Below, piece by piece: positions 5,873 to 62,139 of a DNA stretch of 64,000 bases (the stretch's first letter is position 1; each line of letters begins with the position of its first letter). The position numbers and the translations under genes are program-made. The notes under the pieces were generated by a model. That model worked only from the letters and a program-made list of their open reading frames with translations. It was not told the DNA's origin and searched no databases. The stretch spans positions 114,285 to 178,284 of the forward strand of contig CALXPN010000003.1 in NCBI GenBank assembly GCA_944390285.1. The letters run 5' to 3'. The DNA comes from an uncultured Clostridia bacterium. GTDB lineage: Bacteria; Bacillota; Clostridia; TANB77; CAG-508.

Positions 5873-5884
5873 GTATTCTCCTTT

Positions 5885-6862: not shown

Positions 6863-6874
6863 ATTTTTTCCTTT

Positions 6875-7399
6875 CTAAATGACTGAGAAAGACAAATCAA
6901 AGTCATTTAAATCATTTTCTTGAATTACAAAATTCATTTCTCTTGACGAATCTTTTCCACTTAGTGGATTACTAATAGTTACCCATAATACATAGACTGT
7001 TCCATTTCTTTCTATATTTGTGTATTCCATTGAAGACATTGAAGGGAACTTTGTTTTTACATAATTTTCAAAATCTGCAAGTGTTTTAAAATAGTTTTGT
7101 TTAAACTCATCATATAACATATCATATGCTTCTTGATATTCTTCATTTTCTATAGCTTTCATAAAAGAAGATACATAATATTCCATTCTATCTCTTTCGC
7201 CCATTTCTCCTAAATCATTTTTTACCATGTTATTTACTTCTTCTTCTACTACAACTGCAATTTCTTCGTTTGTCATATTACTATAATCTATTGAATCTTC
7301 ATCTCGTGTAGTAAAAAAAGCAATTAAACCAAGTATTACAACAATAATTAATCCAACAATCACTATTTTGTTGTCTTTTTTCATTTTCATCATTTTCAT
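6875..7399 (-). CDS. small membrane-anchored protein (174 aa)
   Basis: ORF with N-terminal TM helix IVIVGLIIVVILGLIAFF. Confidence 0.5.
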   Translation of the reverse strand: MKMMKMKKDNKIVIVGLIIVVILGLIAFFTTRDEDSIDYSNMTNEEIAVVVEEEVNNMVKNDLGEMGERDRMEYYVSSFMKAIENEEYQEAYDMLYDEFKQNYFKTLADFENYVKTKFPSMSSMEYTNIERNGTVYVLWVTISNPLSGKDSSREMNFVIQENDLNDFDLSFSVI

Positions 7400-7415
7400 C
7401 TCCTTTTATAAAATT

Positions 7416-10085: not shown

Positions 10086-10088
10086 TTA

Positions 10089-12872: not shown

Positions 12873-12887
12873 GCTCTCACCTTCTTT

Positions 12888-17000: not shown

Positions 17001-17012
17001 CTTTTTTCCTTT

Positions 17013-18542: not shown

Positions 18543-18558
18543 TATGAACTCCTAAAAC

Positions 18559-19728: not shown

Positions 19729-19731
19729 TTA

Positions 19732-20979: not shown

Positions 20980-20992
20980 ATATTTTCCTCTT

Positions 20993-33531: not shown

Positions 33532-33547
33532 ACCTTCGGGTTATGAG
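33532..33547. repeat. attL core: 16-bp direct repeat accttcgggttatgag identical to 56400..56415
   Basis: Exact 16-mer match to the anticodon-loop/stem segment of the tRNA-fMet gene at the other end of the element. Confidence 0.7.
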
Positions 33548-34156: not shown

Positions 34157-36511
34157 TTATGTTTCTTCTATAATCTCATATCCAGCAATCTTATATCCTT
34201 TTATTCTTCTAAAATACATTTTTTCTAAAACTTTCATATTATCCAAATAATCATAAACAATTACTTTACTTTTATCTTCATGTTCTCGGTGAAGTCTTCC
34301 TACATATTGCAAGATTCTTCCTTTCCATGAAACTGGCATAGTCAAAAATAGTGTATCTAATCTACTATCATCAAAACCTTCTCCTATAGAACTACTTGTC
34401 GCCAATATTATTCTTGGTTTATTATTTTTATCAGCTTCATCAATAATGTCTCGAATTTCTTTTGCTTTTTTCTTTCCTATTGCTCCTTTATAAATAACAA
34501 CTGGAATGTTCATACCGTCTAATCCTTCTTTTAATATTTTCAAATGTTCTACCCTTTCTGTTAAAACAATAGGAATTCTACCCTCTAAAACACATCTCTT
34601 TATATCTTGAACTATCATATTATTCCTAAATATATTATGACACATGTCATTTAGGATTTCTGAAATTTGTATTTTGTCTTTTTCTTCAGTAGAAATATAT
34701 TTATAACCTGTACTCTTTACAATTACTACATGTTCCATTTCTTTATTTTGTTTTAATTCGCGATTTGCTACTCTAACTCTTATGTCTCCACATTGCATAT
34801 AAATAATTTTATGCCATCCATCTTTTCTTGTAGGTGTTGCTGTTAACCCATATACATATTTACTTCTTATAGCTTTCAATACTTTTTCAAAACTAAATGC
34901 TGCAACATGATGACATTCATCTATTATAACAAGCCCATAATCCTTAACTATATCATCTAAATTGTCTTTCTTAGCTAACGATTGAAAACTAGCTACATCT
35001 AATTTACCATTTAAATTTTCTTTACTCGCTCCAATTTGTCCTATTTCTTTTTTATTTATATTTAAAAAATAGGATAACCTTTCTTTCCATTGTTCTAATA
35101 AATTATTTCTATTTACTATAATCAAAGTATTTGTTTTTAACTCTGAAATAATTTTAGCTCCTATAACAGTTTTTCCAAAACCTGTAGTAGCACATAATAT
35201 TCCTGTTTCATATTTTAATAACTCATTTTTTACATTTTCCTGTTTTTTATTTAGTTTTCCTATAAATGTATAATCTGTATTAATTCCTTCCTCTCTTGTA
35301 TCTTTTATAATTAATTTGACATTGCTTTTTTCACATACTTCTTTAATTTTATCTATGCATCCTCTAGGTAATTTTAGAAATCTATCATCTTCCTCAAAAC
35401 AGCTTATGATCCTTGGTGTTTTATATATAGGTAGTCTTAATTTTTGTTTTTCATAAAATTCTGGATTAGTAAAACTAGCCAATCTTTTCAAATAAGATAC
35501 TTCGTTTGGTAACAATTTTAATTTTTTAACATAAATCATATTATCAAATATACATTCTACATTATTTACAAATTTAACTTCTCTTAAATTTTCTTTTTTA
35601 GACAATTCATCATCTTCTATCTGATCCACATCAGGCTCTTTATAATCATCTTCCCTATATTTATTAACAAAATTATAAACATCATCACTTTTAATTCTTT
35701 TTATATTTTCCAAAATTTCAAATTGATTTTTTTCTGGCTCAAAATATTTATTTACAAAAACTGTATTTCCACTCTTGCTACTTCCCCCCTGAAAAGGTAA
35801 GGCTATTAGATTGCCAAATCCACCCTTAGGCATTGTATCCTGGTTTGGAAATAACCTATCATATGAGTCCAAATCCAATGATTCTTTCTCCATCGTTTTT
35901 GTTAAAAGAATATTTCCCATTTTTCTAGCAATATTTGCTGGCATGCTTTCTTCAAAAAATATCCATACATGCGCTCCATTTCCAGATCGCGATTTTTCAA
36001 CATATATTGGTATATTTAGTTCATCACATATATTCCAAAATGCTAATACATCTTTCTCATAAGTCTTTTTATCAAAATCTATTGCTAGAAAATTACATAA
36101 ATCTCCCGGTAATAATGGGTAAATTCCGATTGTTATTTTTCCTTGTAAATGTTTTAATATAACATTTTCTGTTAAAGGTTGTAACTCTCTAAAACCACAA
36201 TTATTGCATTTAACTCTTGGTTTATCACATTTATATGTATTAAATTCATTTATACATACTGGTGAATACCCTGATTTTCCTGTTGTACTACTTGTCCACC
36301 TTTTTGCATAAATATCTATCCTCCCTTTAAATATTTCCATAAATATTTTTATTTTTTCTTCAGTTGAAATAGCTTTTGTTTCTTTAATTATTTCTTTTTC
36401 TTCTACTTTTCTGTCTAAATTCCCATACAATTTTTCTTTTAGTTCTTTATTTTCTTTTTCTAATTCTTTTAATCTTTCTATTAATTCTTTTTTTCCTAAT
36501 TTTTCTAACAA
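34157..36511 (-). CDS. archaeo-eukaryotic-primase (PrimPol)-like domain fused to an SF2 DEAD/DEAH helicase (784 aa)
   Basis: N-terminal AEP motifs DFD, SGNGAHVWIFF and ALPF; Cys-rich zinc-ribbon CDKPRVKCNNCG; helicase Walker A TTGFGKTVIGAKII and Walker B IIDECHH; helicase C-terminal block. Confidence 0.7.
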   Translation of the reverse strand: MLEKLGKKELIERLKELEKENKELKEKLYGNLDRKVEEKEIIKETKAISTEEKIKIFMEIFKGRIDIYAKRWTSSTTGKSGYSPVCINEFNTYKCDKPRVKCNNCGFRELQPLTENVILKHLQGKITIGIYPLLPGDLCNFLAIDFDKKTYEKDVLAFWNICDELNIPIYVEKSRSGNGAHVWIFFEESMPANIARKMGNILLTKTMEKESLDLDSYDRLFPNQDTMPKGGFGNLIALPFQGGSSKSGNTVFVNKYFEPEKNQFEILENIKRIKSDDVYNFVNKYREDDYKEPDVDQIEDDELSKKENLREVKFVNNVECIFDNMIYVKKLKLLPNEVSYLKRLASFTNPEFYEKQKLRLPIYKTPRIISCFEEDDRFLKLPRGCIDKIKEVCEKSNVKLIIKDTREEGINTDYTFIGKLNKKQENVKNELLKYETGILCATTGFGKTVIGAKIISELKTNTLIIVNRNNLLEQWKERLSYFLNINKKEIGQIGASKENLNGKLDVASFQSLAKKDNLDDIVKDYGLVIIDECHHVAAFSFEKVLKAIRSKYVYGLTATPTRKDGWHKIIYMQCGDIRVRVANRELKQNKEMEHVVIVKSTGYKYISTEEKDKIQISEILNDMCHNIFRNNMIVQDIKRCVLEGRIPIVLTERVEHLKILKEGLDGMNIPVVIYKGAIGKKKAKEIRDIIDEADKNNKPRIILATSSSIGEGFDDSRLDTLFLTMPVSWKGRILQYVGRLHREHEDKSKVIVYDYLDNMKVLEKMYFRRIKGYKIAGYEIIEET

Positions 36512-36752: not shown

Positions 36753-36807
36753 AAGTGGGCAATTTGAATTTTATAATTATTCATTTTGCTCACTTTATTT
36801 ATAAATT
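36753..36807. terminator. hairpin terminator, copy 2 (aaataaagtgggcaa...ttgctcactttattt)
   Basis: Stem-loop downstream of the AlbA_2 gene, sharing 25 nt with 34114-34138. Confidence 0.5.
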
Positions 36808-36850
36808 CTGCAGTGTTCTCTGCAGAGCTCTGCAGAATTCTCTGCAGAAA
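36806..36850. repeat. four CTGCAG hexamer palindromes at 10-12 bp spacing (tctgcag tgt tctctgcaga gc tctgcaga att ctctgcaga)
   Basis: Direct reading; contains PstI/SacI/EcoRI-like sites in a row; lies between the AlbA_2 gene stop and its terminator. Confidence 0.5.
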
Positions 36851-36941: not shown

Positions 36942-38390
36942 TTATTGTTTTTGAAATTTATATTTTGTTCCTTCAGCCTTAATAATAAGATTCAAATCTA
37001 AAAGTAAAGAAATTAAATTAGTCGCCCTTGTATCTTTTATATTTAAAATGTTCTTTATATCCTCCCTAGAAAACATATTATTGTAACCCATTTTTTCAAA
37101 AATATTTCTTATTTGATTTATTGTACTATTTCTAATATTTGTATTTTGTATACTTTTATATAACTGTATAAAAAATAAATCCCTATCTGAAACAATATTT
37201 TTATTTTCATCCGTTTCATTTGTTTTATAATAGCCCTTATTAGGAAATATTACTGTAAATGATAGAGAATCAGAAATAAATTTTGGTTTTTGAATAGAAT
37301 CATTATAGCTCTCCAATATTCTACTTAATCCACTTCCTCTACGATCCATGTAATGTAATCTACTGAAAACATCTGCAATTACAATATTCCTTCTCATAGA
37401 TGGAATATTTTTTATCTCTAGATTTTGAATAAGACTGCCATCAAACATTCCTCCTGGTGAAGTAATTTCTAATCTATCATCAAACATATCTATATGAATT
37501 TCTGCGCCTAAAATCTGATAATCTCTGTGAATTAATGCATTTACTATTGCTTCCCTACGAGCAGTAATAGGATATTCCTCTAGTTCTTGTCTTTCCATTC
37601 CTACAACTTTCCAGGACATTTTAGAATTATTTTTTATAAAAGAATCTGCATTCTCTAATAATGCTATAATACTTCCATTATATTCCTTATCATCAATTGC
37701 ATCTTCTGCTATTATTCCCTTATTTAATCCTTTCCACCTAGTACATACAATTTTAGACTGCTTTAAGGGATTTTGGTCACTTAATAATAGTCCTGCATTT
37801 GTTAGTTCTTTTTCAGTGTTAGCTAATCCCAAAGAAAAAAAATCTTTATTTTCATCAAATTTTTTATTCGTTTTTTCTTTTATAGTCGCTGCTAGCAAAG
37901 TAAAACTTAAATCATTAATTTTATAATCTGTTGGTAATGCATCAAATGTTAAATTTTTTCCTTTTAATATAAGATTATTTAATATATGCTCTGGAGCGGG
38001 TATACTTTGATTTCCAGAACGAATAAAAGCTTCTTTTCTTCCATCTATTACTAAATAATAAGGAGTTGACGGTCCATCTCCTATTTTTAATTCTAAAAAA
38101 TCTTTTCCATTTTCAGTAAAAGAATTTATTTCATATCTAGGTAATGGTAAAATTCTAGCATTTATAATTTCAGTGATTTTTTCAGCTACTTGTTGAACAT
38201 TATCTAATCCTTCTAGTTCATGTGTACTGTCATCCACTCCGAATAAAATGATTCCACCTTTTGAATTAGCAAATGCTGATACTGATTTTAGCCAACTTTT
38301 AGGTCTTTTTTCTTCTAATGCAATTTTATAATCAATATTACTTGTCTCTGCTTTTTCATAATCTTTTATCTTCAAATTATATACCTCCAC
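36942..38390 (-). CDS. AlbA_2 (Schlafen-like divergent AAA) + HATPase_c_4 domain protein (putative ATP-dependent DNA-binding/defence-associated regulator)
   Basis: N-terminal KSWLKSVSAFANSKGGIILFGVDD block typical of the AlbA_2 'putative DNA-binding' domain; C-terminal HRDYQILGAEIHIDMFDDRLEITSPGG is a GHKL-type ATPase-like block. Confidence 0.6.
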   Translation of the reverse strand: MEVYNLKIKDYEKAETSNIDYKIALEEKRPKSWLKSVSAFANSKGGIILFGVDDSTHELEGLDNVQQVAEKITEIINARILPLPRYEINSFTENGKDFLELKIGDGPSTPYYLVIDGRKEAFIRSGNQSIPAPEHILNNLILKGKNLTFDALPTDYKINDLSFTLLAATIKEKTNKKFDENKDFFSLGLANTEKELTNAGLLLSDQNPLKQSKIVCTRWKGLNKGIIAEDAIDDKEYNGSIIALLENADSFIKNNSKMSWKVVGMERQELEEYPITARREAIVNALIHRDYQILGAEIHIDMFDDRLEITSPGGMFDGSLIQNLEIKNIPSMRRNIVIADVFSRLHYMDRRGSGLSRILESYNDSIQKPKFISDSLSFTVIFPNKGYYKTNETDENKNIVSDRDLFFIQLYKSIQNTNIRNSTINQIRNIFEKMGYNNMFSREDIKNILNIKDTRATNLISLLLDLNLIIKAEGTKYKFQKQ

Positions 38391-39288: not shown

Positions 39289-39654
39289 TTATATTATACT
39301 ATATACTCTTTTCTTTAAAATTCCAATTAATATCCATATTATTAAGTTAACTATAAAAGATATTGATATAATATAAGTTAAATTTAGTTTATTAAAATTA
39401 TAACATAAAAAACTAATTAAAGCAGTATTAAAAATATAATTTATACAATATAATGTACATCCTAACCAACTTGGATGTTTTTCTTTTTCATAAATACTTG
39501 ATGTTAGAAAAAAAGAAAGCAAATGTAATATGGTTCCTCCAATAATTATATTAAAAATATCTGCATATGCACTTGTTTCGAAATACATTGCATATGGATT
39601 GGATAAGCAAAATTGTCTTATAAATACACTTAGTAAATTAAATACCTTATACAA
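39289..39654 (-). CDS. small 3-4 TM membrane protein (121 aa)
   Basis: Hydrophobic ORF between the phosphoesterase and the Zn-ribbon gene, same strand with short gaps. Confidence 0.45.
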   Translation of the reverse strand: MYKVFNLLSVFIRQFCLSNPYAMYFETSAYADIFNIIIGGTILHLLSFFLTSSIYEKEKHPSWLGCTLYCINYIFNTALISFLCYNFNKLNLTYIISISFIVNLIIWILIGILKKRVYSII

Positions 39655-39699
39655 ATACGACCTCCTTTATAAATTTTTAGGCATCTATGTAAAAGATGC

Positions 39700-40047
39700 C
39701 TATGTTATTCTTCTCTTAAATAATTGCCTAATTCGTTCAAATATACATTTTTTATTATTTTTTTGTTGGTAGTTTTCTAACCATTCAACATTATTATCTG
39801 TTATATAATAATGTGACCTACATGGTATATTAAAGTTTCCTATTGATGGTCTAAGTGTAATAGATTGTCCATCATATTTCATTATCCATCCATATTTTTT
39901 ATCTATTGGTGTTACAGTTTTTTCACCACATCCACATGCACATCTATGCACAATAACATTGCAGCTAAGGCACACATACAATATACCATTCTTTAAGTTT
40001 AAAGGAACTTTATCAACAAATTCAACTTTAAATTTATTAATCTTCAT
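39700..40047 (-). CDS. small Cys-rich zinc-ribbon protein (115 aa) partnered with the E2/E1 fusion; DUF6527-like
   Basis: CLSCNVIVHRCACGCGE...PCRSH; 11-nt overlap with the upstream E2/E1 gene, suggesting translational coupling. Confidence 0.5.
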   Translation of the reverse strand: MKINKFKVEFVDKVPLNLKNGILYVCLSCNVIVHRCACGCGEKTVTPIDKKYGWIMKYDGQSITLRPSIGNFNIPCRSHYYITDNNVEWLENYQQKNNKKCIFERIRQLFKRRIT

Positions 40048-41197
40048 GTACTATTTCTCCCATTTCTATTGAATAAACATTTTGACATTTACTATTAGCA
40101 TTTTCGTATATATTAAAATATTTTTTCCACTCAATAACAGCTATTGTTGCATTTAGAGCATTGCATTCTGCAATTTGAATATTTGTATTATATACATCGT
40201 CTCCATCCTCGTCAAAATCAATATATGTAGAAATTCTATCATAATTATTTTTGTCAAACACAGTAGTTCTTATCAGTCCATTTATAGTATCATTTATATT
40301 TTGTAATCCTATTCCAGTATCTATAAATGGTATTTTTTCTGATACAAGGTAATCTACTATTAAATTCCTTGCTATTCCTGAATCAATGCTTATAAATACA
40401 AAATCCATATCTTTTAATATATTGACATTTTCTTCATTAATAAATATGTCATGCTCTATTATATTCTTATACATATTTTGATATATTTCTTTAAAGTAGC
40501 ATACTTTTGATAAACTTTTTGTAAATATTTCTTTACTTGCTGCTCCTGGACTTCTAAAAGCATTATGTTGACAAAATACATCTCCATCAATCAAATGTAT
40601 TTCTTTGACATTAGTTTTTGAAACTAAATCAAGTATATATGTTCCAGTTCCTCCAAGTCCAATAATTGCTATTTTTTTATCTAATATTTTTTTATTGCAA
40701 TTATCAATTCCAGCCCTTGAAGAATTTGTGTCTACATATTGAAATACTGAATCTTCTTCTGTCACCACTTTTTTAAATGTTCTTGCCGTTACTGAATTAT
40801 CTTTATCTATAGCTCTAGAAGAAATTATGTTTATATAATTCACAAATTTTTCATAATAGTCTTTATAATTTTCATTTGGTTTATTTGAAAATGAGCGTTT
40901 TACATTTATTCCAGCCAAAATCGAATTGCTGACACTATGCTTTATTTGCTTGATTTCTGTACCATCTGCATTACAAGGTTGATCTCCTGAAAAATATATA
41001 ACATGGTCTCCATTATATTTAGCCTTATCACCTTCAAACGCAATTTTTGACACTAACGTACCATAATCTATTTCTCCATTTGCTTTCAAGTATGGAATAT
41101 GGGAAACAATCCCATATCCACTTTTTACATCTATTTCATATCCTTCATTCTGAAGTTTTTTTAAGTCATCACTATGATTTATTAGTTCTTGTGACAT
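40037..41197 (-). CDS. E2-like/E1 (ThiF/MoeB-type adenylyltransferase) fusion protein of a bacterial ubiquitin-like conjugation system
   Basis: C-terminal Rossmann block KKIAIIGLGGTGTYILDLV...IHLIDGDVFCQHNAFR (ThiF nucleotide-binding and Arg motif); candidate catalytic Cys in AECNAL; ~170-aa N-terminal extra domain with a conserved Cys (DQPCNADG), consistent with an E2-like fold. Confidence 0.65.
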   Translation of the reverse strand: MSQELINHSDDLKKLQNEGYEIDVKSGYGIVSHIPYLKANGEIDYGTLVSKIAFEGDKAKYNGDHVIYFSGDQPCNADGTEIKQIKHSVSNSILAGINVKRSFSNKPNENYKDYYEKFVNYINIISSRAIDKDNSVTARTFKKVVTEEDSVFQYVDTNSSRAGIDNCNKKILDKKIAIIGLGGTGTYILDLVSKTNVKEIHLIDGDVFCQHNAFRSPGAASKEIFTKSLSKVCYFKEIYQNMYKNIIEHDIFINEENVNILKDMDFVFISIDSGIARNLIVDYLVSEKIPFIDTGIGLQNINDTINGLIRTTVFDKNNYDRISTYIDFDEDGDDVYNTNIQIAECNALNATIAVIEWKKYFNIYENANSKCQNVYSIEMGEIVHED

Positions 41198-41429
41198 TTA
41201 TTCTCATCCCCTTCTTAACCATAACTACTTGTCCTTTAAGTAAAAAACCATTAGGTTTATTATTATTTCCTTTAAAATAAATTACAGTATAAATTACAGT
41301 TTCACTATCTTCATAATGTCCAAAAGCTAATTTTATAACTTCCTCATATGAAATTTTATCCTTTACTACCTCTTTTTCTTCACCATTAATGTAAATGGTG
41401 ATTTTATGTTTATTTTTTTCTTCTAACAT
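41172..41429 (-). CDS. ubiquitin-like beta-grasp protein (85 aa)
   Basis: KITIYINGEEKEVVKDKISYEEVIKLAF...GQVVMVKKGMRINV resembles ThiS/MoaD/prokaryotic Ubl; 26-nt overlap with the E2/E1 gene. No C-terminal Gly-Gly. Confidence 0.55.
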   Translation of the reverse strand: MLEEKNKHKITIYINGEEKEVVKDKISYEEVIKLAFGHYEDSETVIYTVIYFKGNNNKPNGFLLKGQVVMVKKGMRINVTRTNKS

Positions 41430-41651
41430 TTTTATTACCTCTTTTCTGTTATTTTTTCATCGATTGATTTAGGCATACAAAAAGACCTCCTTCTTAAAAA
41501 ATTTTAGAAAAGGTCTTTACATTTTATCCGATAAATGTTAGAATTATATCAATCGATGGTTTATTATAACTTTTAGCGGAGTAAAATAAACCTTTTCTAA
41601 TTAGTTAGGTTTTGCCGAACCTAACTTTTTTATGTTATTTTGAATAACAAA

Positions 41652-42224
41652 CTATATTATACTTTCATAAATATATTGCTTTCCTCCTGTTGGTGCATCT
41701 TCCATTCTTCTTTTTAACAACCCCAGTTTATATAAAGTTGTTGTCCTATTATTAATAACTTGAACAGTAGTATTTAATATATCTGCTAATGTTCTTGAAT
41801 CTGCTTTTTTCTTTTCATATAGCACTTTAAATATGTCTTTTAAACCATTACTACATTTACCAAGTATTTCATAAGTATCCTGTTCTAATAAATTTATACA
41901 GAATAATTCTTGTCTATCTAATGCTACATTAATATTTTCTCTAACTTCATTTTCTGCATTACTAATAATAATATGTTTTCCTATTAAATCAGCTTGTAAT
42001 CTTGAAATCGGAATACAAATCAAATCACTAGCCGCTGAAAAATCAATCATTGTAATTTGTTTAAAGTCCATAACTAAAACATCATCCATAGATTCATTCC
42101 ATTTTTTTAAAATTATATTTCTATAATTTCTAGCATTTTCATGTCCCCAAATTAGATTTTTGTTAGTTAATTCATATAAATTTATTATAAACATAAAATT
42201 TACTCCCTTTCTGGTAAATCTCAT
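41652..42224 (-). CDS. DUF4325 (STAS-like) domain protein with C-terminal HTH
   Basis: 190 aa; usual partner of the upstream histidine-kinase-like ATPase; wHTH-like TLADILNTTVQVINNRTTTLYKLGLL. Confidence 0.5.
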   Translation of the reverse strand: MRFTRKGVNFMFIINLYELTNKNLIWGHENARNYRNIILKKWNESMDDVLVMDFKQITMIDFSAASDLICIPISRLQADLIGKHIIISNAENEVRENINVALDRQELFCINLLEQDTYEILGKCSNGLKDIFKVLYEKKKADSRTLADILNTTVQVINNRTTTLYKLGLLKRRMEDAPTGGKQYIYESII

Positions 42225-42274
42225 TTTGTTTACGAGATTATTATACTAATATTTTTTCCATTTGTCAATATATT

Positions 42275-43132
42275 TTATAAATTTATGCAAAAATTCACAT
42301 GTGTTCCTTCTAAATCATAAATTTTCATACTTTCTCTTTGGTTTTTACCTCTTATATATTCAGAAGAATAAAATCCATCTCTTGAAATTATAAAGAAATT
42401 CATTTTTCTTTCTGTAGATAAATTATTTAAACAATAAAATCCATTTCCTCTAAATTTATCATCTTCACTGTTAATATAATTTTTTTCAGTGAAAATATAT
42501 TTCATAGTCTCTTCATTATTTTTAAAAACTCCTACGTATTTTTTGTTTTTTGCTAATGCTTCTTTAATTCCTATTCCAAAATCTGCAATACTAATCATCA
42601 ATTCCGATTGATATTTTTGCATTGCAAATATGCATCCATCTCTACTATTACTGTGATCTATAGCATTCTGAAAAATTTCTACTAATACTGTAAATATTTT
42701 ACTTATTTCGTCTTCTACTATATTTTTGTTTTTTAACCATGAAATTATTTTTTCTATAATTAATTCAACATCATCATTATTATGAATTACTTGAAGTGGT
42801 ATATATTCTTTATCATCACTAATATTAGGAACGCTATGTAATTTAGAAATTATATTTAATCCATTATATTTCACATTTGCAAATTTTTTAATGTAATCAA
42901 CAAATCCTGATATATGTAAATAATTTGATACATCTAAATTACGAGGCATTATGACTGACATTTTATTACAATTATTAAATTCCTTTTTTAATAATAATGT
43001 CATTGAAACAATACCAAATATATCTGCAAATTTAATTTCTGATATATCAATACAATTATCTATTTGTTTCTGATTTAAATCAATTATTCCTTTTAAGAAT
43101 CCTTTTTTATTCAACTTATATTCTATTTTCAT
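42275..43132 (-). CDS. GHKL/histidine-kinase-like ATPase (anti-sigma-factor-like ATP-binding protein)
   Basis: IFQNAIDHSNS...ISIADFGIGIKE matches the N-box and G-box of the HATPase_c fold. Confidence 0.55.
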   Translation of the reverse strand: MKIEYKLNKKGFLKGIIDLNQKQIDNCIDISEIKFADIFGIVSMTLLLKKEFNNCNKMSVIMPRNLDVSNYLHISGFVDYIKKFANVKYNGLNIISKLHSVPNISDDKEYIPLQVIHNNDDVELIIEKIISWLKNKNIVEDEISKIFTVLVEIFQNAIDHSNSRDGCIFAMQKYQSELMISIADFGIGIKEALAKNKKYVGVFKNNEETMKYIFTEKNYINSEDDKFRGNGFYCLNNLSTERKMNFFIISRDGFYSSEYIRGKNQRESMKIYDLEGTHVNFCINL

Positions 43133-43157: not shown

Positions 43158-46100
43158 TTATTTCTTATATTCTTCCTCTTCCTCAGCAACCATTGCTAAA
43201 TTATTATTATTTTCTTCATCTGTAATATCATATTGTATATCATTATTTCCATCTTCATTTGAACTATTTATTCCAAAATACTTTTCAAAGAATTTCTTTA
43301 TCTTATCAATTATCGTTTGTTTCTTTTCTGCTCTATTGCCTCCTCCAAATCTTCTCATTGGTGGTAATATTTTTTCTATATCTGTACCTGTTGTTTTAAC
43401 TTCTCCATCTCTAAAGGAATTATCTAAGAATTTTCTTGTTTCTTTCTCATTTAAGTTTTCTTCCTTAATCAAATTTTCTAAATCTATTTCTTTTTGTTGT
43501 TTTACAAATTTAGCCCAATCTTTATAAACATTTGTATCTGCATTTATCTTTGAAATGAATTTGTCTATCAACTCTTTCTTTGAACGAAGTGCTAAACTTG
43601 ATTTTATTGCTTTCTCAATAGAACCTAATATTTCTTTATCTTCGCAATTTGAATCATGGTATTTAGCTACTAACATCAAAATATAATCTATATTTACTTC
43701 TACTTGCTTTACAAGTTCCATTTCAAATACTATATCTTCTTTAATACTTTCCTCTTCTTCTGGTCTTGATTTGTATTCTTCATATAAGTCAGTATATGTT
43801 CCAATATAGTCTTGAAAATCTCTTTCTGATAATATTTCATTTCCTGCAAATTTATCAAATGAAGATAATATGTTTCTAAGTCTTAAAATATTTCCCATTA
43901 GTACAATAAAGTCTTTCTTATTTTGTTCTCCTATTATCTGCACTCCTAAAGGATATTTTTGTATCAACATAGCTATTCTTTCTTCATACCCTATATGTTT
44001 TCTTCCTTTATCATCTTCATATCCATAATAATAATCTTCATAAGATTTTAATAATACGATTCCCTTTGCATTTTTATCTCCAAATAATGCAATAGCATCA
44101 TTTGTGGCTTCTTCTAAATCTCTAAAGCATACAATATTTCCATAAGCTTTTACAGAATTTAATATACGATTTGTTCTTGAATATGCTTGTATCAATCCAT
44201 GTTGTTTTAAGTTTTTATCTACCCATAGCGTATTTAATGTTGTTGCATCAAATCCCGTCAAAAACATATTTACTACTATTAGCAAATCCACTTCTCTATT
44301 TTTTACCCTATCGGATAAGTCTTTATAATAGTCTTGGAATCCATTCCCCTCTGATGAAAAATTTGTTTTAAATTTCTTATTATATTCCCCTATAGCAAAA
44401 TCTAAAAACTCTTTTGAACTTTGATCTAGTAAGTCTGTTTCAAATTCTTCATCTTCTAATATTCCATTACTATTATCTTCCTCATTAGGTGCATATGAAT
44501 ATATTGTTGCAATGGTCAAATCTTTATGTTTTTCTTCTAATTGTTTTTTGAACTCTAAATAATATTTTTTAGCCATTGGAATTGAACTTACAGCAAATAT
44601 TGAGTTAAATCCATTTACTCTTTGTCCCTTTAAATCATAGAATGAATTTCTTTTTGTTTTTTGGTCAAAATGGTCTATTATATATTCTACTATTTTACTT
44701 ACTCTTTCATGTGATGACAACGCTTCTTCTGTATTTATTGCTGCTACTTCTTTATCTGTCATTCCCTCTTTTTCTTTTACTGTATTTACATAGTCTATTC
44801 TAAATGGTAATACATTTCCATCATTAATTGCATCAACGATTGTATATGTATGTAATTTATCACCAAAAGCTTGCTCTGTTGTGCAAAAATTTGGATTTGA
44901 TTTATTTACAGCATTTTTGGCAAATATTGGAGTTCCTGTAAATCCAAACAAATGATAATTTTTAAAATTCTTAACTATCATCTGGTGCATGTCACCAAAT
45001 TGAGAACGATGGCATTCATCAAATATCAATACTAAATGTTTTTGATATGCTGGATGATTTTTATTTCTTTTTGCAAATTCGCTAAGTTTTTGTATTGTTG
45101 TAACTATAATTCTTGATGTCTCATCTTCTAATTGTTTTTGTAAAATCTTTGTATTTCTATTTCCATTTGCTGCACCTTTTTGAAATCTATCATATTCTTT
45201 CATTGTTTGATAATCTAAGTCTTTTCTATCTACAACAAACAGAACTTTATCTATATAATCTAAATTTGTTGCAAGTTGTGCTGTTTTAAATGATGTAAGT
45301 GTTTTCCCTGAACCTGTTGTATGCCATATATATCCACCTGCTTCAATGGTACCCATCTTTTTATAATTTGTAGAAACTTCTATTCTATTTAAAATTCTTT
45401 CTGTTGCAACTATTTGATAAGGTCTCATTACAAGTAACATGTTCTCTGATGTAAATACACAATATTTGGTTAATATATTTAATATTGTATGTTTTGAAAA
45501 GAATGTTCTTGTAAAATCAACCAAATCATGAATTATCTTATTATTACTATCTGCCCAATAAGAGGTAAATTCAAAACTATTACTTGTTTTTTTGCTTTTA
45601 TTTCTAGTACAATTCTTTTCTTTTACATGATTTTCTCTTGTTGTATTTGAATAATATTTTGTATTTGTACCATTAGAAATCACAAATATTTGTACATATT
45701 CATAAAGTCCACTTCCTGCCCAATAACTTTCTTTTTGATATCTATTTATTTGATTAAATGCTTCTTTTAAAGCAACTCCTCTTCTTTTTAATTCTATATG
45801 TACTAATGGAAATCCGTTTACAAGTATTGTTACATCATATCTATTTTTATAACTTCCATCTTTTTCTTCATATTGATTTATAACTTGTAGTCTATTATTA
45901 TGAATACATTTTTTATCTATTAATGTAATATTTTTACTTGTTCCATCATCTCTTTTTAGTACCTGAATATTATCTTCTTGTATCTTTCTTGTTTTTTCAA
46001 CTATTCCATCATTATTATTACAAATATTATCATTAAAGAATTTTTCCCATTCACTATCTGTGAATGTATATTTATTTAATAATTCTAATTGTTTACGCAA

Positions 46101-46286
46101 ATTTCTTATAAGTGTATTAGAATCGTGTATTTGTAAATAATCATAGCCTTGTTCTTGTAGCATTTCTATAAATTCTTTTTCTAATTCTGCTTCACTTTGA
46201 TATGAATCAGAACGTTTTTGCATTGGCTTATATTCAGTTACTACTGTTGAATTACTCATTTCCATTACTACATTATATTTACTCAT
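43158..46286 (-). CDS. hsdR: type I restriction enzyme R subunit
   Basis: 1042 aa; Walker A HTTGSGKTLTS; DEAD-box IFDECHRSQ; typical HsdR N-terminal nuclease region. Confidence 0.9.
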   Translation of the reverse strand: MSKYNVVMEMSNSTVVTEYKPMQKRSDSYQSEAELEKEFIEMLQEQGYDYLQIHDSNTLIRNLRKQLELLNKYTFTDSEWEKFFNDNICNNNDGIVEKTRKIQEDNIQVLKRDDGTSKNITLIDKKCIHNNRLQVINQYEEKDGSYKNRYDVTILVNGFPLVHIELKRRGVALKEAFNQINRYQKESYWAGSGLYEYVQIFVISNGTNTKYYSNTTRENHVKEKNCTRNKSKKTSNSFEFTSYWADSNNKIIHDLVDFTRTFFSKHTILNILTKYCVFTSENMLLVMRPYQIVATERILNRIEVSTNYKKMGTIEAGGYIWHTTGSGKTLTSFKTAQLATNLDYIDKVLFVVDRKDLDYQTMKEYDRFQKGAANGNRNTKILQKQLEDETSRIIVTTIQKLSEFAKRNKNHPAYQKHLVLIFDECHRSQFGDMHQMIVKNFKNYHLFGFTGTPIFAKNAVNKSNPNFCTTEQAFGDKLHTYTIVDAINDGNVLPFRIDYVNTVKEKEGMTDKEVAAINTEEALSSHERVSKIVEYIIDHFDQKTKRNSFYDLKGQRVNGFNSIFAVSSIPMAKKYYLEFKKQLEEKHKDLTIATIYSYAPNEEDNSNGILEDEEFETDLLDQSSKEFLDFAIGEYNKKFKTNFSSEGNGFQDYYKDLSDRVKNREVDLLIVVNMFLTGFDATTLNTLWVDKNLKQHGLIQAYSRTNRILNSVKAYGNIVCFRDLEEATNDAIALFGDKNAKGIVLLKSYEDYYYGYEDDKGRKHIGYEERIAMLIQKYPLGVQIIGEQNKKDFIVLMGNILRLRNILSSFDKFAGNEILSERDFQDYIGTYTDLYEEYKSRPEEEESIKEDIVFEMELVKQVEVNIDYILMLVAKYHDSNCEDKEILGSIEKAIKSSLALRSKKELIDKFISKINADTNVYKDWAKFVKQQKEIDLENLIKEENLNEKETRKFLDNSFRDGEVKTTGTDIEKILPPMRRFGGGNRAEKKQTIIDKIKKFFEKYFGINSSNEDGNNDIQYDITDEENNNNLAMVAEEEEEYKK

Positions 46287-46289
46287 AAC

Positions 46290-47494
46290 TTACTCCTTAT
46301 TTTCTACTTTTAATTCTTTGAAATTTAATAATTTATCTCTATAATATTCATATTGCTTTTGTCTTGCCTCTATTTCAGCAGGTAACCCCTCTGAAATATC
46401 ATTAGTTAATTTTTCAAATTTATCTAAAATTTCTACTATTTTTTGTTGAATCTCCAACGGAATCATTGGCACAGCAAATTCATTTAGCATAGGCTTTCTA
46501 ATAGAAGTAACAGATGAATTAAAAGATCTTTCCATTATATATTTGTAAAATTTAGCTTTCATATAATAATACACAAATTCTGTACTAAATTCGTTATTTA
46601 AAATATGTATTCTATATGCTCTTTGATGTAGTGCGTACTTTCCATTTATTAAATGAAATATCTTTCCGACTCCTACGCCATCACCAGAAGTAATTATTGC
46701 TTTTTCATCAAATTCATAAGTATCTTTATATCTAACTATAGGAGAACGAACATAAAAAGGGTATTTACCAATTTTTAATTCTTCGTTTGTATTACTGCTA
46801 CCTGTTCCTATTTCAGCAATATCTATTAATTTTATATATTCTATTTTTTGTCTATAGAAGTATCCGTGTGTGTGTGTGTGTGTACAGCGCCAAAGGTTTC
46901 ATTGTTTTCAAAATTTAATAGTTTGTCTCTATAATATTCATATTGTTTTTGTCGAGCTTTCAACTCGGCTGAAAGCTCGGCTGAAAGCTCGGCTGAAAGC
47001 TCGGCTGAAAGTAAGATGAAATCGTCCAAAACATGGACAATTTCATCTTGTACCTCCAACGGAGGTACAGCAATCTGAAGCTTTCTAAAATCACCCTGAT
47101 TTAATTTTGGTATATTTCCATGAATTAAACTTGTTACATTAATTGTTTGAATATAATGATATAAATATCTTAAAGAAACTCCTTCTATTTCTTCAATAAT
47201 ATGTGCATGATTATTTACCCATATTTTTCCTTCAGCCCATGTTACTATCGGATTTCCATTTTCATTTATAACAGAACCATCTTCTCCAACTAATACATAT
47301 TTTCCATCAAATATGTAGTCAGCTACATAATCTTGAATTCCATTAGCTCCGTAATATGGATATTCTCCTGCTTTTCTTGCAGACTTTGTAACAGGTTTCC
47401 TTTTATTATCTAATATGTTACAGCATTTTTCCAAATCTAAAAATTTTACACCATTTGGACATTTATTTTTTATTAAATCATCAATTCTTCCCAT
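46290..47494 (-). CDS. hsdS: type I R-M specificity subunit, split into two reading frames at a (GT)9 tract (TRD1+central region 46841..47494; TRD2+distal region 46290..~46898)
   Basis: Upstream ORF ends ...ARQKQYEYYRDKLLNFENNETFGAVHTHTHTDTSIDKK*. Downstream frame is open from 46898 and ends with the repeated conserved block EARQKQYEYYRDKLLNFKELK. The two frames differ by one, so (GT)8 or (GT)11 would fuse them. Confidence 0.8.
46866..46883. repeat. (GT)9 dinucleotide tract at the hsdS TRD1/TRD2 junction
   Basis: gtgtgtgtgtgtgtgtgt read directly; both hsdS frames are open across it. Confidence 0.9.
46964..47011. repeat. 4 x 12-bp tandem repeat (ctcggctgaaag) encoding SAEL x4 in the hsdS central conserved region
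   Basis: Direct reading; encodes LSAELSAELSAELSAEL, analogous to the TAEL spacer repeats of EcoR124I/II. Confidence 0.9.
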
Positions 47495-47495
47495 T

Positions 47496-49055
47496 TTACA
47501 CCTCTATCTCTGCAATTATTTTAGCTATTTCAATACGAAGTTTATTTTCTCTCTCAACAATTTCATCTATTTCTTTGTTTAATTCAACAATATCAATTTT
47601 TTCTCTTATATCTTCTTTTTCTACATAAGTTGCAACTGATAAATTATAATCATTTTGGGCAATTTCTTCATTCAATACTATTTTTGCAATATGTTCCTTA
47701 TCCACTCTATTTTTAAATATCTCTATAATATTATTTATATTTTCATCTGTTAATTTATTATTATTTGTTACCTTAACACATTCATTTGTTGCATCTATAA
47801 ATAATGTGCTATTATCTTTTTTACTTTTCTTTAATACCATTATACAAGTTGCTATACTTGTTCCAAAGAATAAATTATCAGGTAATTGAATAATACAATC
47901 TACAAAGTTATTATCAATTAAGTATCTTCTTATTTTTTGTTCTGCTCCACCTCTATATAAAATTCCAGGAAAACATACTATTGATGCAGTACCATTAGTT
48001 GCTAACCAAGATAAAGAGTGCATTATAAATGCAAAGTCTGCTTTTGATTTAGGCGCTAATATTCCTGCTGGAGAATATCTTGGATCATTTATTAGAAGTG
48101 GATTATCGTTTCCAGCCCATTTAATAGAATATGGTGGATTTGATACTATTACTTCGAATGGTTCATCATCCCAATGTTGTGGATTAGTTAATGTATCTTC
48201 ACAAGCTATATCAAATTTATCATACCCTATATCATGTAAAAACATATTTATTCTACATAAATTATATGTAGTTAAATTTATTTCTTGTCCATAAAAACCG
48301 TTTCTTACATTTTCTTTTCCTAGTATTTTAGCAGATTTTAAAAGTAATGAACCTGATCCACAAGCTGGATCATATACTTTATTAACAGATTTTTTACCTA
48401 CTACTGCAAGTCTTGTTAGTAATTCACTTACCTCTTGAGGTGTAAAAAATTCTCCTCCTGACTTTCCTGCATTTGATGCATACATAGACATTAAATATTC
48501 ATAAGCATCACCAAACGCATCTATTAAATTATCTTTATAATTATTTAATTTAATATCTGCAATACCGTTTAATATTTTTACCAATTTATCATTTCTTTTA
48601 GCTACTGTTGCTCCTAATTTATTACTATTTACATCTATATCGTCAAATAATCCTGCAAAATCTTCTTCACTTTCTGCTCCTTTTGCAGAATTTTCTATAT
48701 CATTAAATACTCTTTCTAACGTTTCATTTAAGTTTTCATCATTTTTTGCCCTTTTACAAACATTGCAAAATAATTCTGAAGGTAATATAAAAAATCCTTT
48801 TTCTTTTACTAATTCTTCTCTTTGTGTTTCTGCAATTTCATCTGGTAATTTTGTATAATCAAAATCTTTATCTCCAGCTTTTCTTTCTCCTTCATTTATA
48901 TAATCTGTTATATTTTCTGAAATATATCTATAAAACATCATTCCCAATATATATTGTTTAAAGTCCCATCCGTCAACAGAACCTCTCAAATCATCAGCTA
49001 TTGCCCATATCTTTTTGTGTAATTCTTCTCTTTCTCTCGTATTTTTGTTATCCAT
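47496..49055 (-). CDS. hsdM: type I R-M N6-adenine DNA methyltransferase subunit
   Basis: HsdM N-terminal domain; SAM motif DPACGSGSLL; catalytic NPPY (VSNPPYSIKW). Confidence 0.9.
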   Translation of the reverse strand: MDNKNTREREELHKKIWAIADDLRGSVDGWDFKQYILGMMFYRYISENITDYINEGERKAGDKDFDYTKLPDEIAETQREELVKEKGFFILPSELFCNVCKRAKNDENLNETLERVFNDIENSAKGAESEEDFAGLFDDIDVNSNKLGATVAKRNDKLVKILNGIADIKLNNYKDNLIDAFGDAYEYLMSMYASNAGKSGGEFFTPQEVSELLTRLAVVGKKSVNKVYDPACGSGSLLLKSAKILGKENVRNGFYGQEINLTTYNLCRINMFLHDIGYDKFDIACEDTLTNPQHWDDEPFEVIVSNPPYSIKWAGNDNPLLINDPRYSPAGILAPKSKADFAFIMHSLSWLATNGTASIVCFPGILYRGGAEQKIRRYLIDNNFVDCIIQLPDNLFFGTSIATCIMVLKKSKKDNSTLFIDATNECVKVTNNNKLTDENINNIIEIFKNRVDKEHIAKIVLNEEIAQNDYNLSVATYVEKEDIREKIDIVELNKEIDEIVERENKLRIEIAKIIAEIEV

Positions 49056-54820: not shown

Positions 54821-54858
54821 TATGTCTTCCCTACCACATGAAAGGAGGTGATGAAGGT

Positions 54859-56046
54859 GTGGTAGGAAATATCGAAAAACGTGGAGAGAATTCTTACAGA
54901 TTAAGAGTTTCTGGTGGATATACAGGAGAAGGAAAAAGAATTATTTATAAAAAGACAGTTCAAGCAAAAAATAAAAATGAAGCTAGAAAAGAATTAGCAT
55001 TATTTATATCAGAAATAGAAACTGGACAAGCTTTATCTGCTAAAAAGATGCGTTTTAGAGATTATGCTGATTTTTGGATTAACAATTATGCTATTCCAAA
55101 TTTATCTCCTAAGACTTATGAAAGATATAAAAGTATGTTAAAATCAAGAATTCTCCCCTATCTCGGCAACATGTATTTAGACAAAATTCAACCAATGCAA
55201 TTAATGTATTTATATCAAGAATTGAGTGAGGCAACTTATATTAGAAAAAATATCAAACATAAGTTATCTTCAAAAACTGTACTGGAACATCATAGATTAT
55301 TACATACAATGTTACAACAAGCTGTATATTGGCAAATGATTCCATATAATCCTGCATCAAGAGTAAGACCACCTAAAGCTAAAAAGCCAAATATTAATTT
55401 CTATGATGATGTACAAACAATAGCATTAATTAAAGCATTGGAAGGCGAAGAATTAAAGTTTCGAGTCATTATTCTATTAACAATCTTTACAGGATTAAGA
55501 CGTGGAGAAGTTTTAGGATTAGAATGGCAAGATGTAGACTTTAAGAATTCTTCAATCACTGTAAGACAGGCTAGTCAATATGTTTCTTCCATTGGTATCT
55601 ATACAAAAGGTCCCAAAACAGAAACATCAAACAGGGTTATTAGTATCCCTATCTCAATTACTAAACTTTTAAAAGCTTACAAAAGAAAACAGTTAGAACA
55701 AAGATTAAAATTAGGAGACAAATGGCAAAACACAAATCGATTATTTGTGCAATGGGATGGCTCTCCTATGCATCCAGACACAATTACAAAATGGTTTAGG
55801 CAGTTCCTAGAAGATAAAAACTTGCCACATATTACATTTCATGGCTTACGCCATACACATGCAACTTTGCTTATTGCACAAGGATTAGATGTTAAAACTG
55901 TTAGTAATAGACTTGGACATGCTCAAACATCTACAACATTAAATATCTATGCCCATGCGTTTGCGAAAATGGACAGAGAGGCATCAGATAAACTTGATAA
56001 TCTTCTTTATAGAGAAGATACAAAAAAATATTTTAAAGCCAATTAG
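54859..56046 (+). CDS. int: tyrosine-type site-specific integrase
   Basis: C-terminal catalytic box HGLRHTHATLLIAQGLDVKTVSNRLGHAQTSTTLNIYAH and upstream R (TGLRRGEV). The probable start is the GTG at 54859, 10 nt after AAAGGAGG; the track ATG at 54838 lies inside the RBS region. Confidence 0.85.
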   Translation: MVGNIEKRGENSYRLRVSGGYTGEGKRIIYKKTVQAKNKNEARKELALFISEIETGQALSAKKMRFRDYADFWINNYAIPNLSPKTYERYKSMLKSRILPYLGNMYLDKIQPMQLMYLYQELSEATYIRKNIKHKLSSKTVLEHHRLLHTMLQQAVYWQMIPYNPASRVRPPKAKKPNINFYDDVQTIALIKALEGEELKFRVIILLTIFTGLRRGEVLGLEWQDVDFKNSSITVRQASQYVSSIGIYTKGPKTETSNRVISIPISITKLLKAYKRKQLEQRLKLGDKWQNTNRLFVQWDGSPMHPDTITKWFRQFLEDKNLPHITFHGLRHTHATLLIAQGLDVKTVSNRLGHAQTSTTLNIYAHAFAKMDREASDKLDNLLYREDTKKYFKAN

Positions 56047-56332: not shown

Positions 56333-56370
56333 AAAGAGTCCACAATCTCTTGCGACTCTAGTTAAATCTT

Positions 56371-56446
<76 letters not shown>

Positions 56447-60891: not shown

Positions 60892-62139
60892 ATGAAACTA
60901 AAGAAAAAAATTTTTATATTATTTTTTGTAATTATAATATTATTAAATATTTCCACTACAGTTAGAGCAGAAGAAATTGATATTAATTCAGAAGCAGGTC
61001 TACTTGTAGAAGTAAGTACTGGAAAAATTTTATATGAGAAAAATGCTGATAAAATTATGTATCCTGCAAGTACAACAAAAATACTAACAGCTATTTTAGT
61101 ATTAGAAAATTGTGAACTTTCCGATATGGTAACTGTTTCTCAAAACGCTATTTCAAATATTCCTAGTGGATATGTTACTTGTAATTTACATGCTGGTGAA
61201 GAAATTAGTGTAAATGATTTACTTTATGCTTTAATGCTACCTTCTGCAAATGATGCAGCTTTTGCACTTGCTGAACATGTAGGTGGTTCTGTAGAAAATT
61301 TTTCAGATATGATGAATGAAAAAGCAAAAGAAATTGGTTGTACAAATACTCATTTTGTAAATCCGAATGGAATTCATGATGATAATCATTATACTACAGC
61401 ACATGATTTATATTTAATGGCAAATTATGCTATGAAAAATGAAACTTTTAGAACTATAGTTTCCAAAACAGAATATGTACTTCCTGCAACAAATATGCAT
61501 TCACAAGCAGATAGAATTATGTATAATTCTAATGAATTATTAAATAACAATAGTAAAAATTATTATTATGAAAATGCAATTGGAATAAAAACTGGTACAA
61601 CTTCTAAAGCTGGTAGTTGCCTTGTAGCAGAAAGTTCAAAAAATAATATGGAACTTATTTCTGTTACTTTAAATGGTGGAACTACAAATGGATTAAATGA
61701 TAGATTTACAGATTCCAAAAAATTATTTGACTATGGTTATGAAAACTATAATTTTGATAATATTACTGAAAAAAATGCTACTATATCTACAACGGAAATT
61801 GAAAATGGAACAAAAGGCACAAAAAATCTAAGCTTAATTGCAGAAAACGATATTTCTGTATTACATAATATTAATTTAGATTTAAGTACAATAACACCTG
61901 AAATAACGTTAAATGAAAATCTTTTAGCTCCAATTTCAGAAGGAGAAATTGTTGGAACAGCTAAATACAATGTTGATGGAATTGAATATACCACAAATCT
62001 TTTAGCAGGTAGCAATGTTGAAAAAAAATTGGATATTAGTATAATAATTTTAATTTGTGGAATTTTACTTTTATTTATTTCTGTCAGAATTTTAAGAAAA
62101 AATAAAAAACATAGAAATAAGAGAAAATATAGAAAATAA
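60892..62139 (+). CDS. D-alanyl-D-alanine carboxypeptidase (low-molecular-weight PBP, DacB/DacF-like)
   Basis: SxxK (PASTTKILT), SxN (LPSANDAA), KTG (IKTGTT); signal peptide; C-terminal membrane anchor. Confidence 0.85.
   Translation: MKLKKKIFILFFVIIILLNISTTVRAEEIDINSEAGLLVEVSTGKILYEKNADKIMYPASTTKILTAILVLENCELSDMVTVSQNAISNIPSGYVTCNLHAGEEISVNDLLYALMLPSANDAAFALAEHVGGSVENFSDMMNEKAKEIGCTNTHFVNPNGIHDDNHYTTAHDLYLMANYAMKNETFRTIVSKTEYVLPATNMHSQADRIMYNSNELLNNNSKNYYYENAIGIKTGTTSKAGSCLVAESSKNNMELISVTLNGGTTNGLNDRFTDSKKLFDYGYENYNFDNITEKNATISTTEIENGTKGTKNLSLIAENDISVLHNINLDLSTITPEITLNENLLAPISEGEIVGTAKYNVDGIEYTTNLLAGSNVEKKLDISIIILICGILLLFISVRILRKNKKHRNKRKYRK

Follow-up and report, generated by a model that had tools for sequence, protein, structure and literature searches.

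The window analyzed here, a 64,000-nucleotide stretch of contig CALXPN010000003.1 from an uncultured Clostridia bacterium, contains an intact hsdM-hsdS-hsdR operon of a type I restriction-modification system, in which hsdS, the gene for the specificity subunit, is split by a dinucleotide tract, (AC)9 on the coding strand. This tract lies between the parts of hsdS that encode the two target recognition domains, TRD1 and TRD2, and is most likely a specificity switch rather than an off switch. We somewhat favor the view that with n = 9 repeat units, as in the window, the operon would specify a TRD1 homodimer enzyme with a palindromic target, and with n = 8 or n = 11 an asymmetric TRD1-TRD2 enzyme. 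The first-pass annotation of this DNA had reported the split hsdS and its placement on a mobile element, and had proposed that changes in tract length toggle restriction and modification of the whole system, an arrangement it called a classic phasevarion; that label would apply only if the switched methylation altered the expression of a set of genes.

The genes of the operon all lie on the minus strand, a detail that we add to the earlier description. The upstream hsdS frame (46841..47494; 217 aa in the list of open reading frames (ORFs) and its translation; Pfam Methylase_S, E 1.9e-23) starts with an ATG at 47494, one base past the end of hsdM, whose stop is at 47496, and encodes the N-terminal conserved region, TRD1, the complete helix D1, a (TH)n linker and an out-of-frame tail of 7 residues, DTSIDKK. 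On the coding strand, a helix with LLSAELSAELSAELSAELKARQKQYEYYRDKLLNF is followed by ENNETFGAV and then by the tract ACACACACACACACACAC (46883-46866), an 18-nt frameshifting simple sequence repeat (SSR) that appears as (GT)9 on the plus strand and in frame encodes the (TH)n linker. Beyond it the n = 9 frame reads ...HTHTHTDTSIDKK, and its stop, a TAG at 46843-46841, begins 23 nt past the tract. The downstream frame (46290..46898, minus strand; 202 codons; Methylase_S, E 9.4e-23) is offset by 2 nt from the upstream one in the window; it opens at 46898, after a TGA at 46901-46899, runs through the tract to a stop at 46292-46290, and encodes TRD2 and the distal conserved helix D2, with the end ...EARQKQYEYYRDKLLNFKELKVENKE. 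The earlier description of this arrangement stands in each of its parts, namely the 18-nt tract at 46866-46883, the upstream stop 23 nt beyond it, the downstream frame open through it from 46898, and the division into TRD1 with the central conserved region upstream and TRD2 with the distal region downstream, the last being borne out by the Methylase_S match in each half.

Editing of the tract in silico yielded full-length products of 398, 400 and 402 aa with n = 5, 8 and 11, respectively, and short ones of 217 and 214 aa with n = 9 and 10; hence the frame arithmetic of the first-pass annotation, in which the loss of one unit or the gain of two restores a single HsdS, is right. The downstream TRD2 frame has no ATG, GTG or TTG before a GTG at 46574, so that TRD2 cannot be made independently in the n = 9 state, and separate translation of TRD2 was rejected on this ground. 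The (AC)9 run is the sole dinucleotide tract of at least 5 units in the 64-kb window, which has a G+C content of 26%, and a GT run of even 12 nt arose in none of 100 dinucleotide-preserving shuffles of the window. It also passes the threshold of at least 5 dinucleotide units used in a published survey of such genes (PMC7383803), and its unit length is no multiple of 3. The split-hsdS observation is thereby confirmed as real and far beyond chance. Scans of the window for promoters and terminators gave background levels and were uninformative.

All three type I subunits were identified in the operon: the methyltransferase subunit HsdM, HsdS with its two Methylase_S matches, and HsdR with a nuclease domain and a superfamily 2 (SF2) motor. 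The N6-adenine methyltransferase gene hsdM (47496..49055, minus strand) is intact at 519 aa (Pfam N6_Mtase, E 1.8e-114; HsdM_N, E 7.4e-22), as is the restriction and translocase gene hsdR (43158..46286, minus strand) at 1042 aa, with the Pfam domains HSDR_N, SWI2_SNF2/ResIII, T1R_D3-like and EcoR124_C (E 8.7e-65 for the last). The ATG of hsdR lies 4 nt past the hsdS stop and is preceded by AAGGAG. In comparisons with solved structures, HsdM matched the HsdM of EcoR124II (7bst_D) with E 5.1e-190 over residues 6-518, whereas the match to HsdM of the type IA enzyme EcoKI reached only E 8e-14; HsdR matched that of EcoR124I (2w00/4bec) with E about 2e-275 over residues 6-831, together with the C-terminal domain. 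In HsdS, the pair of conserved helices can be aligned to that of EcoR124II HsdS, whereas the TRDs cannot, and overall HsdS identity to EcoR124 HsdS is about 24%. On the strength of the very strong HsdM and HsdR matches, the EcoR124_C domain and the alignable conserved regions of HsdS, we assign the system by sequence to type IC, the EcoR124 family, which was originally delimited by antibody cross-reaction or genetic complementation.

An AlphaFold2 (AF2) model of P0001, an in-frame relative that is 96% identical, has a mean predicted local distance difference test score (pLDDT) of 86.9. Among HsdS structures, the model finds both its top TM-score (0.71-0.73) and its top sequence identity in EcoR124I HsdS, 7bst_A. 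Helix D1 comprises residues 146-184 of the model, and the tract falls in a linker with pLDDT below 50 (residues 190-207) between D1 and TRD2. D1 and D2 have an identical stretch of 16 residues, ARQKQYEYYRDKLLNF, in common. The 217-aa product ends 27 residues beyond ...YYRDKLLNF and retains all of TRD1 and D1.

The evidence that the tract varies in nature comes from relatives found by protein searches with the in-silico fused HsdS and with the 217-aa product, together with a listing of ten 90% clusters. The tract is present at the same junction in 102 of the 304 homologues retrieved; 39 of these carriers are in frame, 30 and 27 are in the two shifted frames, and the other 6 are downstream ORFs corresponding to the C-terminal half. 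The T/H run of the carriers ranges from 5 to 11 residues, and the number of AC units in the family from roughly 6 to 18, with 9-16 confirmed at the DNA level. The fused-protein query found P0001, a full-length protein present in eight metagenomes, whose DNA carries (AC)14, while more distant relatives at 75-77% identity have (TH)3, (TH)4 or (TH)5 at the same junction. The 217-aa query found many half-size proteins that end just past the tract, in both shifted frames (...HTHTDTSIDKK and ...HTHTRILL). The allele of the window, taken at 90% identity or more and present in the BRZ, ONAT22 and SAYO22 metagenomes, has the in-frame length n = 14 in 8 metagenomes, whereas 16 units occur in 3 and 15 or 9 units in 2 each; sister alleles have n = 10, 13 and 16, and the same cohorts hold samples with different tract lengths. 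The tract is paired with several TRD2s and, in L011, also with a different TRD1. The nearest HsdM genes among species-representative genomes belong to metagenome-assembled genomes (MAGs) of uncultured Clostridium or Clostridia from the gut, among them L011, whose hsdS has (AC)16. With many lengths and all three frames represented among relatives, the tract is a real frameshifting SSR between TRD1 with the central region and TRD2, as the first-pass annotation had proposed.

These data bear on whether the split in the window could be a sequencing or assembly artefact, in which the true tract would be in frame (for example n = 8 or 11) and the frameshift a consensus error. Some long-read technologies are indeed error-prone at repeats. 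Furthermore, the exact 217-aa product has no record elsewhere, and the exact tract flanks, with the tract length left variable, had no match in two collections, one of metagenome contigs and one of genome contigs. Nevertheless, both out-of-frame states are abundant in independent assemblies from many samples and assemblers, n = 9 itself recurs in L089 and L090, and systematic assembly errors would not readily be expected at a dinucleotide tract as short as 18 nt. Even a wrong count here would leave the locus an SSR switch of variable length, and we regard an artefact as very unlikely.

Still less probable, to a degree that we would call slight, is that the frameshift represents the one-way inactivation of a system that is being lost. 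The split hsdS and the common occurrence of degraded cargo on mobile islands could be taken to suggest such decay, but neither hsdM (519 aa) nor hsdR (1042 aa) is interrupted or lacks any of its domains, and the 202-codon TRD2 frame has stayed open in DNA of 26% G+C. Between the window and the in-frame allele L001, TRD2 shows 6 synonymous differences and 1 non-synonymous difference in 192 codons. Moreover, an open TRD2 frame of 189-203 codons with a conserved C-terminus is kept in 20 of 20 out-of-frame loci as well as in the window, and the frameshift is always located at the repeat. TRD2 thus appears to be under purifying selection. The TRD2 frame kept open in all out-of-frame loci, the excess of synonymous differences and the intact hsdM and hsdR argue for a reversible switch rather than decay, and the pattern fits a selected contingency repeat.

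Several features of the relatives deserve mention in their own right. In L011, a 200-aa ORF (6564-7166) is found between hsdM and the (AC)16-split hsdS with its different TRDs, and a TTG shortly before the tract could serve this lineage as a start codon for separate synthesis of the TRD2 half. Two members of the P0001 cluster, P0230 and P0233, differ at the tract edge, one by an extra Q after the tract and the other by an in-frame deletion of GYFYRQKIEYIKLID, which suggests that the tract also promotes local rearrangements. Numerous HsdS homologues of extended length, about 600 aa (576-617 aa; P0008-P0011, P0015-P0018 and others), align over the full query at 45-62% identity and are possible members of the class with three TRDs described by Atack et al. 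(PMC7383803). The sister loci L093-L101 have a 358-aa gene with a weak AAA_13 match between hsdS and hsdR (4241-5317 in L093) and a MobC/NikA-like gene upstream of hsdM. The 358-aa gene occupies the same position as the prrC anticodon-nuclease gene of the type IC EcoprrI locus.

The mechanism that we consider most plausible starts from slipped-strand mispairing, which would shift n by whole units and thereby move hsdS among three frames. The (AC)n tract, presumably hypermutable, sits in a linker predicted to be disordered between the dimerization helix D1 and TRD2. With n = 2 mod 3 the gene encodes a full-length TRD1-D1-TRD2-D2 HsdS, for which an asymmetric bipartite target is expected, whereas with n = 0 or 1 mod 3 it encodes a half-size TRD1-D1 subunit, the state of the window with n = 9. 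Self-pairing of this half-size subunit through D1, a helix almost the same as D2, is most likely, and the resulting homodimer would direct the same HsdM and HsdR to a palindrome composed of the TRD1 half-site, a spacer and the complement of the half-site. A second, slower repeat, a 12-bp unit encoding SAEL within D1, probably sets the length of the spacer.

We judge a specificity switch likely because truncated HsdS proteins of type IC systems, namely EcoR124I-delta50, EcoDXXI-deltaC and NgoAV, are active as homodimers. The EcoR124I-delta50 homodimer recognizes GAA N7 TTC and the EcoDXXI-deltaC homodimer TCA N8 TGA, and the similarity of D1 to D2 has been offered as a possible reason why type IC half-subunits work (PMC3874165). 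In NgoAV, a poly-G tract ends hsdS1, and the loss of one G creates an hsdS1-hsdS2 fusion with a new target; the truncated HsdS of 208 aa is active on GCAN8TGC and the fused form on GCAN7STCA (PMC9577141). In a survey of REBASE, 7.8% of hsdS genes had SSRs, in every case between the TRDs, and it was argued that these switch specificity and do not turn the enzyme ON or OFF (PMC7383803). By analogy with these systems, we infer that the truncated form encoded in the window would be active with a palindromic specificity and that the SAEL repeat would affect its spacer. It may be speculated, in addition, that the roughly 550 nt of untranslated mRNA ahead of hsdR in the truncated state lower hsdR expression.

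The alternative of plain ON/OFF phase variation holds that only full-length HsdS is active, so that a cell with n = 9 would be without restriction or modification from this system. The frameshift does remove TRD2 and D2 with no start codon for a separate TRD2, a four-copy SAEL helix is atypical and might fail as a productive homodimer, and a roughly 1:1:1 spread of frames would also fit a low-cost OFF state. Against this stand the membership of the system in type IC, the one family for which activity of truncated TRD1-D1 subunits has been demonstrated more than once (PMC3874165, PMC9577141), the location of the truncation past a complete D1 that nearly matches D2, and the case for specificity switching made by the SSR-hsdS survey (PMC7383803). 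We consider ON/OFF variation rather unlikely, and the proposal of the first-pass annotation that the tract toggles the whole system is not upheld, given the active type IC truncations, the retention of TRD1 and D1, and the contrary conclusion of the REBASE survey.

Several considerations nonetheless weigh against the specificity switch that we favor. Activity of the truncated subunit is argued by analogy with three proteobacterial type IC enzymes, to which HsdS is about 24% identical overall, and in surveys of NgoAV some of the loci were predicted to encode no active enzyme (PMC9577141). The tract polymorphism lies between assemblies and is population-level evidence only, and the in-frame and out-of-frame counts are biased by the construction of the searches. 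Finally, four SAEL copies exceed the number in all of about 300 relatives, so that this allele could be impaired, and three copies of the corresponding TAEL unit are the apparent optimum according to a review (PMC3874165), as against the four units in the window.

The SAEL repeat, which the first-pass annotation did not mention, is a perfect 12-bp x 4.0 tandem array (46964..47011, minus strand; Tandem Repeats Finder (TRF) period 12, 100% match, score 96) that encodes (SAEL)4 inside D1, the translation across it being LLSAELSAELSAELSAELKARQ. Among the approximately 300 relatives, 70 proteins have two copies and 11 have one, with three or four in none. The window differs from the 96%-identical in-frame allele L001 by a 24-nt indel at this array, and near-identical alleles with one copy are present in L089 and L090. 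Hence, SAEL copy number is polymorphic, and the window has the longest array seen. In EcoR124I and EcoR124II, two versus three copies of TAEL give spacers of N6 versus N7 (PMC3874165). The SAEL array is the counterpart of this spacer-setting repeat, and by analogy four copies should lengthen the spacer of the recognition sequence.

A broader and more tentative proposal, which we regard as possible if doubtful, is that the family is a specificity generator with two dials, a fast (AC)n tract and a slower SAEL number of 1, 2 or 4, carried on a mobile island that would circulate among uncultured Clostridia of human and animal guts. The (AC)n tract would flip the target between palindromic and asymmetric, and the SAEL number would reset the spacer in both forms. 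At least six methylation and restriction specificities could thus arise from one operon, with the (AC)n linker serving as a portable module that recombines with different TRDs.

The locus was compared with the closest characterized systems. Like NgoAV of Neisseria gonorrhoeae FA1090 (Adamczyk-Poplawska et al. 2011, 2022, PMC9577141), it combines hsdM, a split hsdS (hsdS1/hsdS2 in NgoAV) and hsdR in an EcoR124-like enzyme family, with an SSR that closes the TRD1-D1 part on its 3' side, a fusion of the frames through a one-unit change, and a half-size truncated product (208 of 410 aa in NgoAV, 217 of 400 here). The two differ in that the repeat of NgoAV is a poly-G homopolymer, whereas that of the window is an (AC)n dinucleotide, and the C-terminal part of NgoAV is incomplete and inactive as a separate product (PMC3874165), whereas TRD2 is intact here. 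Furthermore, the present host is a Gram-positive gut anaerobe that has the locus on an integrated island, and its specificities are predictions, while those of NgoAV were measured.

With EcoR124I, EcoR124II and EcoDXXI (PMC3874165), the locus has in common strong HsdM and HsdR similarity, the same gene order, and a D1 that resembles D2. EcoR124I and EcoR124II also have a 12-bp, 4-residue repeat in D1, TAEL there and SAEL here, with 2 or 3 copies in contrast to the 4 of the window. As in EcoR124I-delta50 and EcoDXXI-deltaC, a half subunit would result from truncation past D1; in the Escherichia coli prototypes, however, the truncations were laboratory deletions or Tn5 insertions, whereas the present locus has a built-in SSR. 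The TRD sequences are unrelated to those of the EcoR124 family prototypes, with only the conserved regions alignable at the low HsdS identity given above.

The REBASE catalogue of SSR-containing hsdS genes (Atack et al., FASEB J 2019/2020, PMC7383803) includes GCAA[n] in Haemophilus parasuis and Pseudomonas aeruginosa, AG[n] in Mycoplasmataceae and G[12] in Salmonella. These genes resemble the present family in having an SSR between the TRDs, a repeat unit that is no multiple of 3, and lengths that vary among otherwise identical alleles, while the family described here adds a variable SAEL array and travels on an integrative island. The main text of that work (PMC7383803) describes neither an (AC)n hsdS family nor any Clostridia, the string 'Clostridi' occurring 0 times in it. 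A further point of comparison is provided by inverting hsdS systems, such as SpnD39III/ivr of Streptococcus pneumoniae, hsd of Mycoplasma pulmonis and the 'epigenetic invertons' (PMC7672463), in which alternative HsdS specificities likewise arise within a clone from one type I locus. These, however, switch by site-specific recombination, which acts on duplicate copies of hsdS with inverted repeats on either side. Beside the hsd operon of the window there is no second hsdS copy or recombinase, the only integrase nearby being that of the island itself, about 6 kb away, and an inversion-type shufflon was rejected on the absence of both a second hsdS copy and an invertase at the locus.

The mobile setting of the operon, which the first-pass annotation had also proposed, is supported by an integrase, an insertion at the 3' end of a tRNA gene and strain-variable occupancy of the site. 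To the right of the operon follow a DnaC/IstB-like gene, a helix-turn-helix (HTH) regulator, a GNAT gene, a tyrosine integrase (54838..56046, plus strand; Pfam Phage_integrase, E 1.2e-28, and Phage_int_SAM_3) and a tRNA-Met (CAT) gene (56371..56446, minus strand; ARAGORN), the 3' end of which forms the right-hand junction of the island. Beyond the tRNA lies a chromosomal gene for PBP5 (60892-62139), whose copies at 99% identity are found in metagenome assemblies only, the nearest named relative being at 61% in a MAG labeled 'Clostridia bacterium'. L108 and L112, both contigs from the species of the window, are 98% identical to it, the former starting at 56357 and the latter at 56367, up to 64000, and diverge completely to the left of the tRNA-Met 3' end, where each has a different integrase and cargo. 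Three strains of one species thus have three integrase-bearing islands at this tRNA-Met 3' end (56357-56446 in the window, about 5174-5453 in L108 and about 5067-5487 in L112), the cargo being the hsd operon in the window, an AAA_5/AAA_2 ATPase pair in L108 and a Mob_Pre mobilizable element in L112. On this comparison, the tRNA-Met 3' end is an integration hot spot, and since L108 and L112 diverge exactly there with other integrases and cargo, the hsd operon is assigned to a strain-specific integrated island.

No left end of this island emerged from look-ups of the left-flank genes. A search for direct repeats with the tRNA-Met region returned only 16 bp, ACCTTCGGGTTATGAG, at 33532-33547 and 56400-56415; this repeat lies inside the anticodon arm, off the junction that other strains place at the tRNA 3' end, and its flanks show no further similarity. 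The copy at 33532 is a possible far boundary, in which case the island would span about 22.9 kb. A megablast search of the locus against plasmids gave, apart from trivial matches, only a 75% match of hsdR to a record from Fusobacterium vincentii that is about 2.1 Mb long and presumably represents a chromosome, and comparison with phages gave no match, which argues that the island is not a catalogued plasmid or phage.

Other features of the window include a gene cluster directly downstream of hsdR (39289-43132, minus strand), between hsdR and the helicase genes. It encodes a DUF6527 protein (115 aa), a protein with DUF6791 and a ThiF E1-like domain (386 aa, with PADLOC 'E1-E2' matches), a 190-aa ORF with a faint CARF-like match and a 285-aa ORF with a weak HATPase_c match, and is adjoined by a Metallophos protein with a PDC-S10 match. 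From these domains, it looks like a candidate defence module of the ubiquitin-like-conjugation type. A tandem and palindromic repeat, TCTGCAGAATTCTCTGCAGAGC x1.9 with a period of 12 or 22, occupies 36807-36848, in the gap between a primase-helicase gene (34157-36511) and a helicase gene (36942-38390), and could serve the island as an origin or iteron-like site. Farther to the left, a long block of co-directional genes (5170-25024, minus strand) encodes a VirB4/TraG-like ATPase (20993-22987), a PrgI-family protein (24269-24604), a protein with a weak match to pilins of type IV secretion systems (10089-12872), and very large ORFs of 1370, 927 and 889 aa without a significant family match. It is likely to be a conjugation module that belongs to the same large element or else to a neighboring one. 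A prophage origin was considered for the large left-hand genes and rejected, as PHROGs matches were weak or absent and Pfam pointed to type IV secretion genes.

The locus introduces no new principle, SSR switching of hsdS, homodimers of truncated type IC subunits and spacer repeats of the TAEL type having each been documented. Its main interest lies in how abundant the arrangement is among uncultured gut Clostridia and in its natural allelic series. This series, which combines 1, 2 or 4 SAEL copies, varied AC tracts, several TRD2s and all three frames, offers natural material on how the geometry of type IC HsdS sets target spacing. For annotation, the implication is that a 'split' or 'pseudogene' hsdS at such a tract should not be read as a dead system. 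If the favored interpretation is correct, a mobile island would give its host a stochastically changing restriction barrier and methylation pattern, with effects on phage resistance, on the uptake of foreign DNA and possibly on gene expression in abundant uncultured gut Clostridia. If, furthermore, the more tentative proposal of two combined repeats holds, SSR-based epigenetic and defence heterogeneity would be widespread in gut commensals, in a form invisible to surveys focused on inversions.

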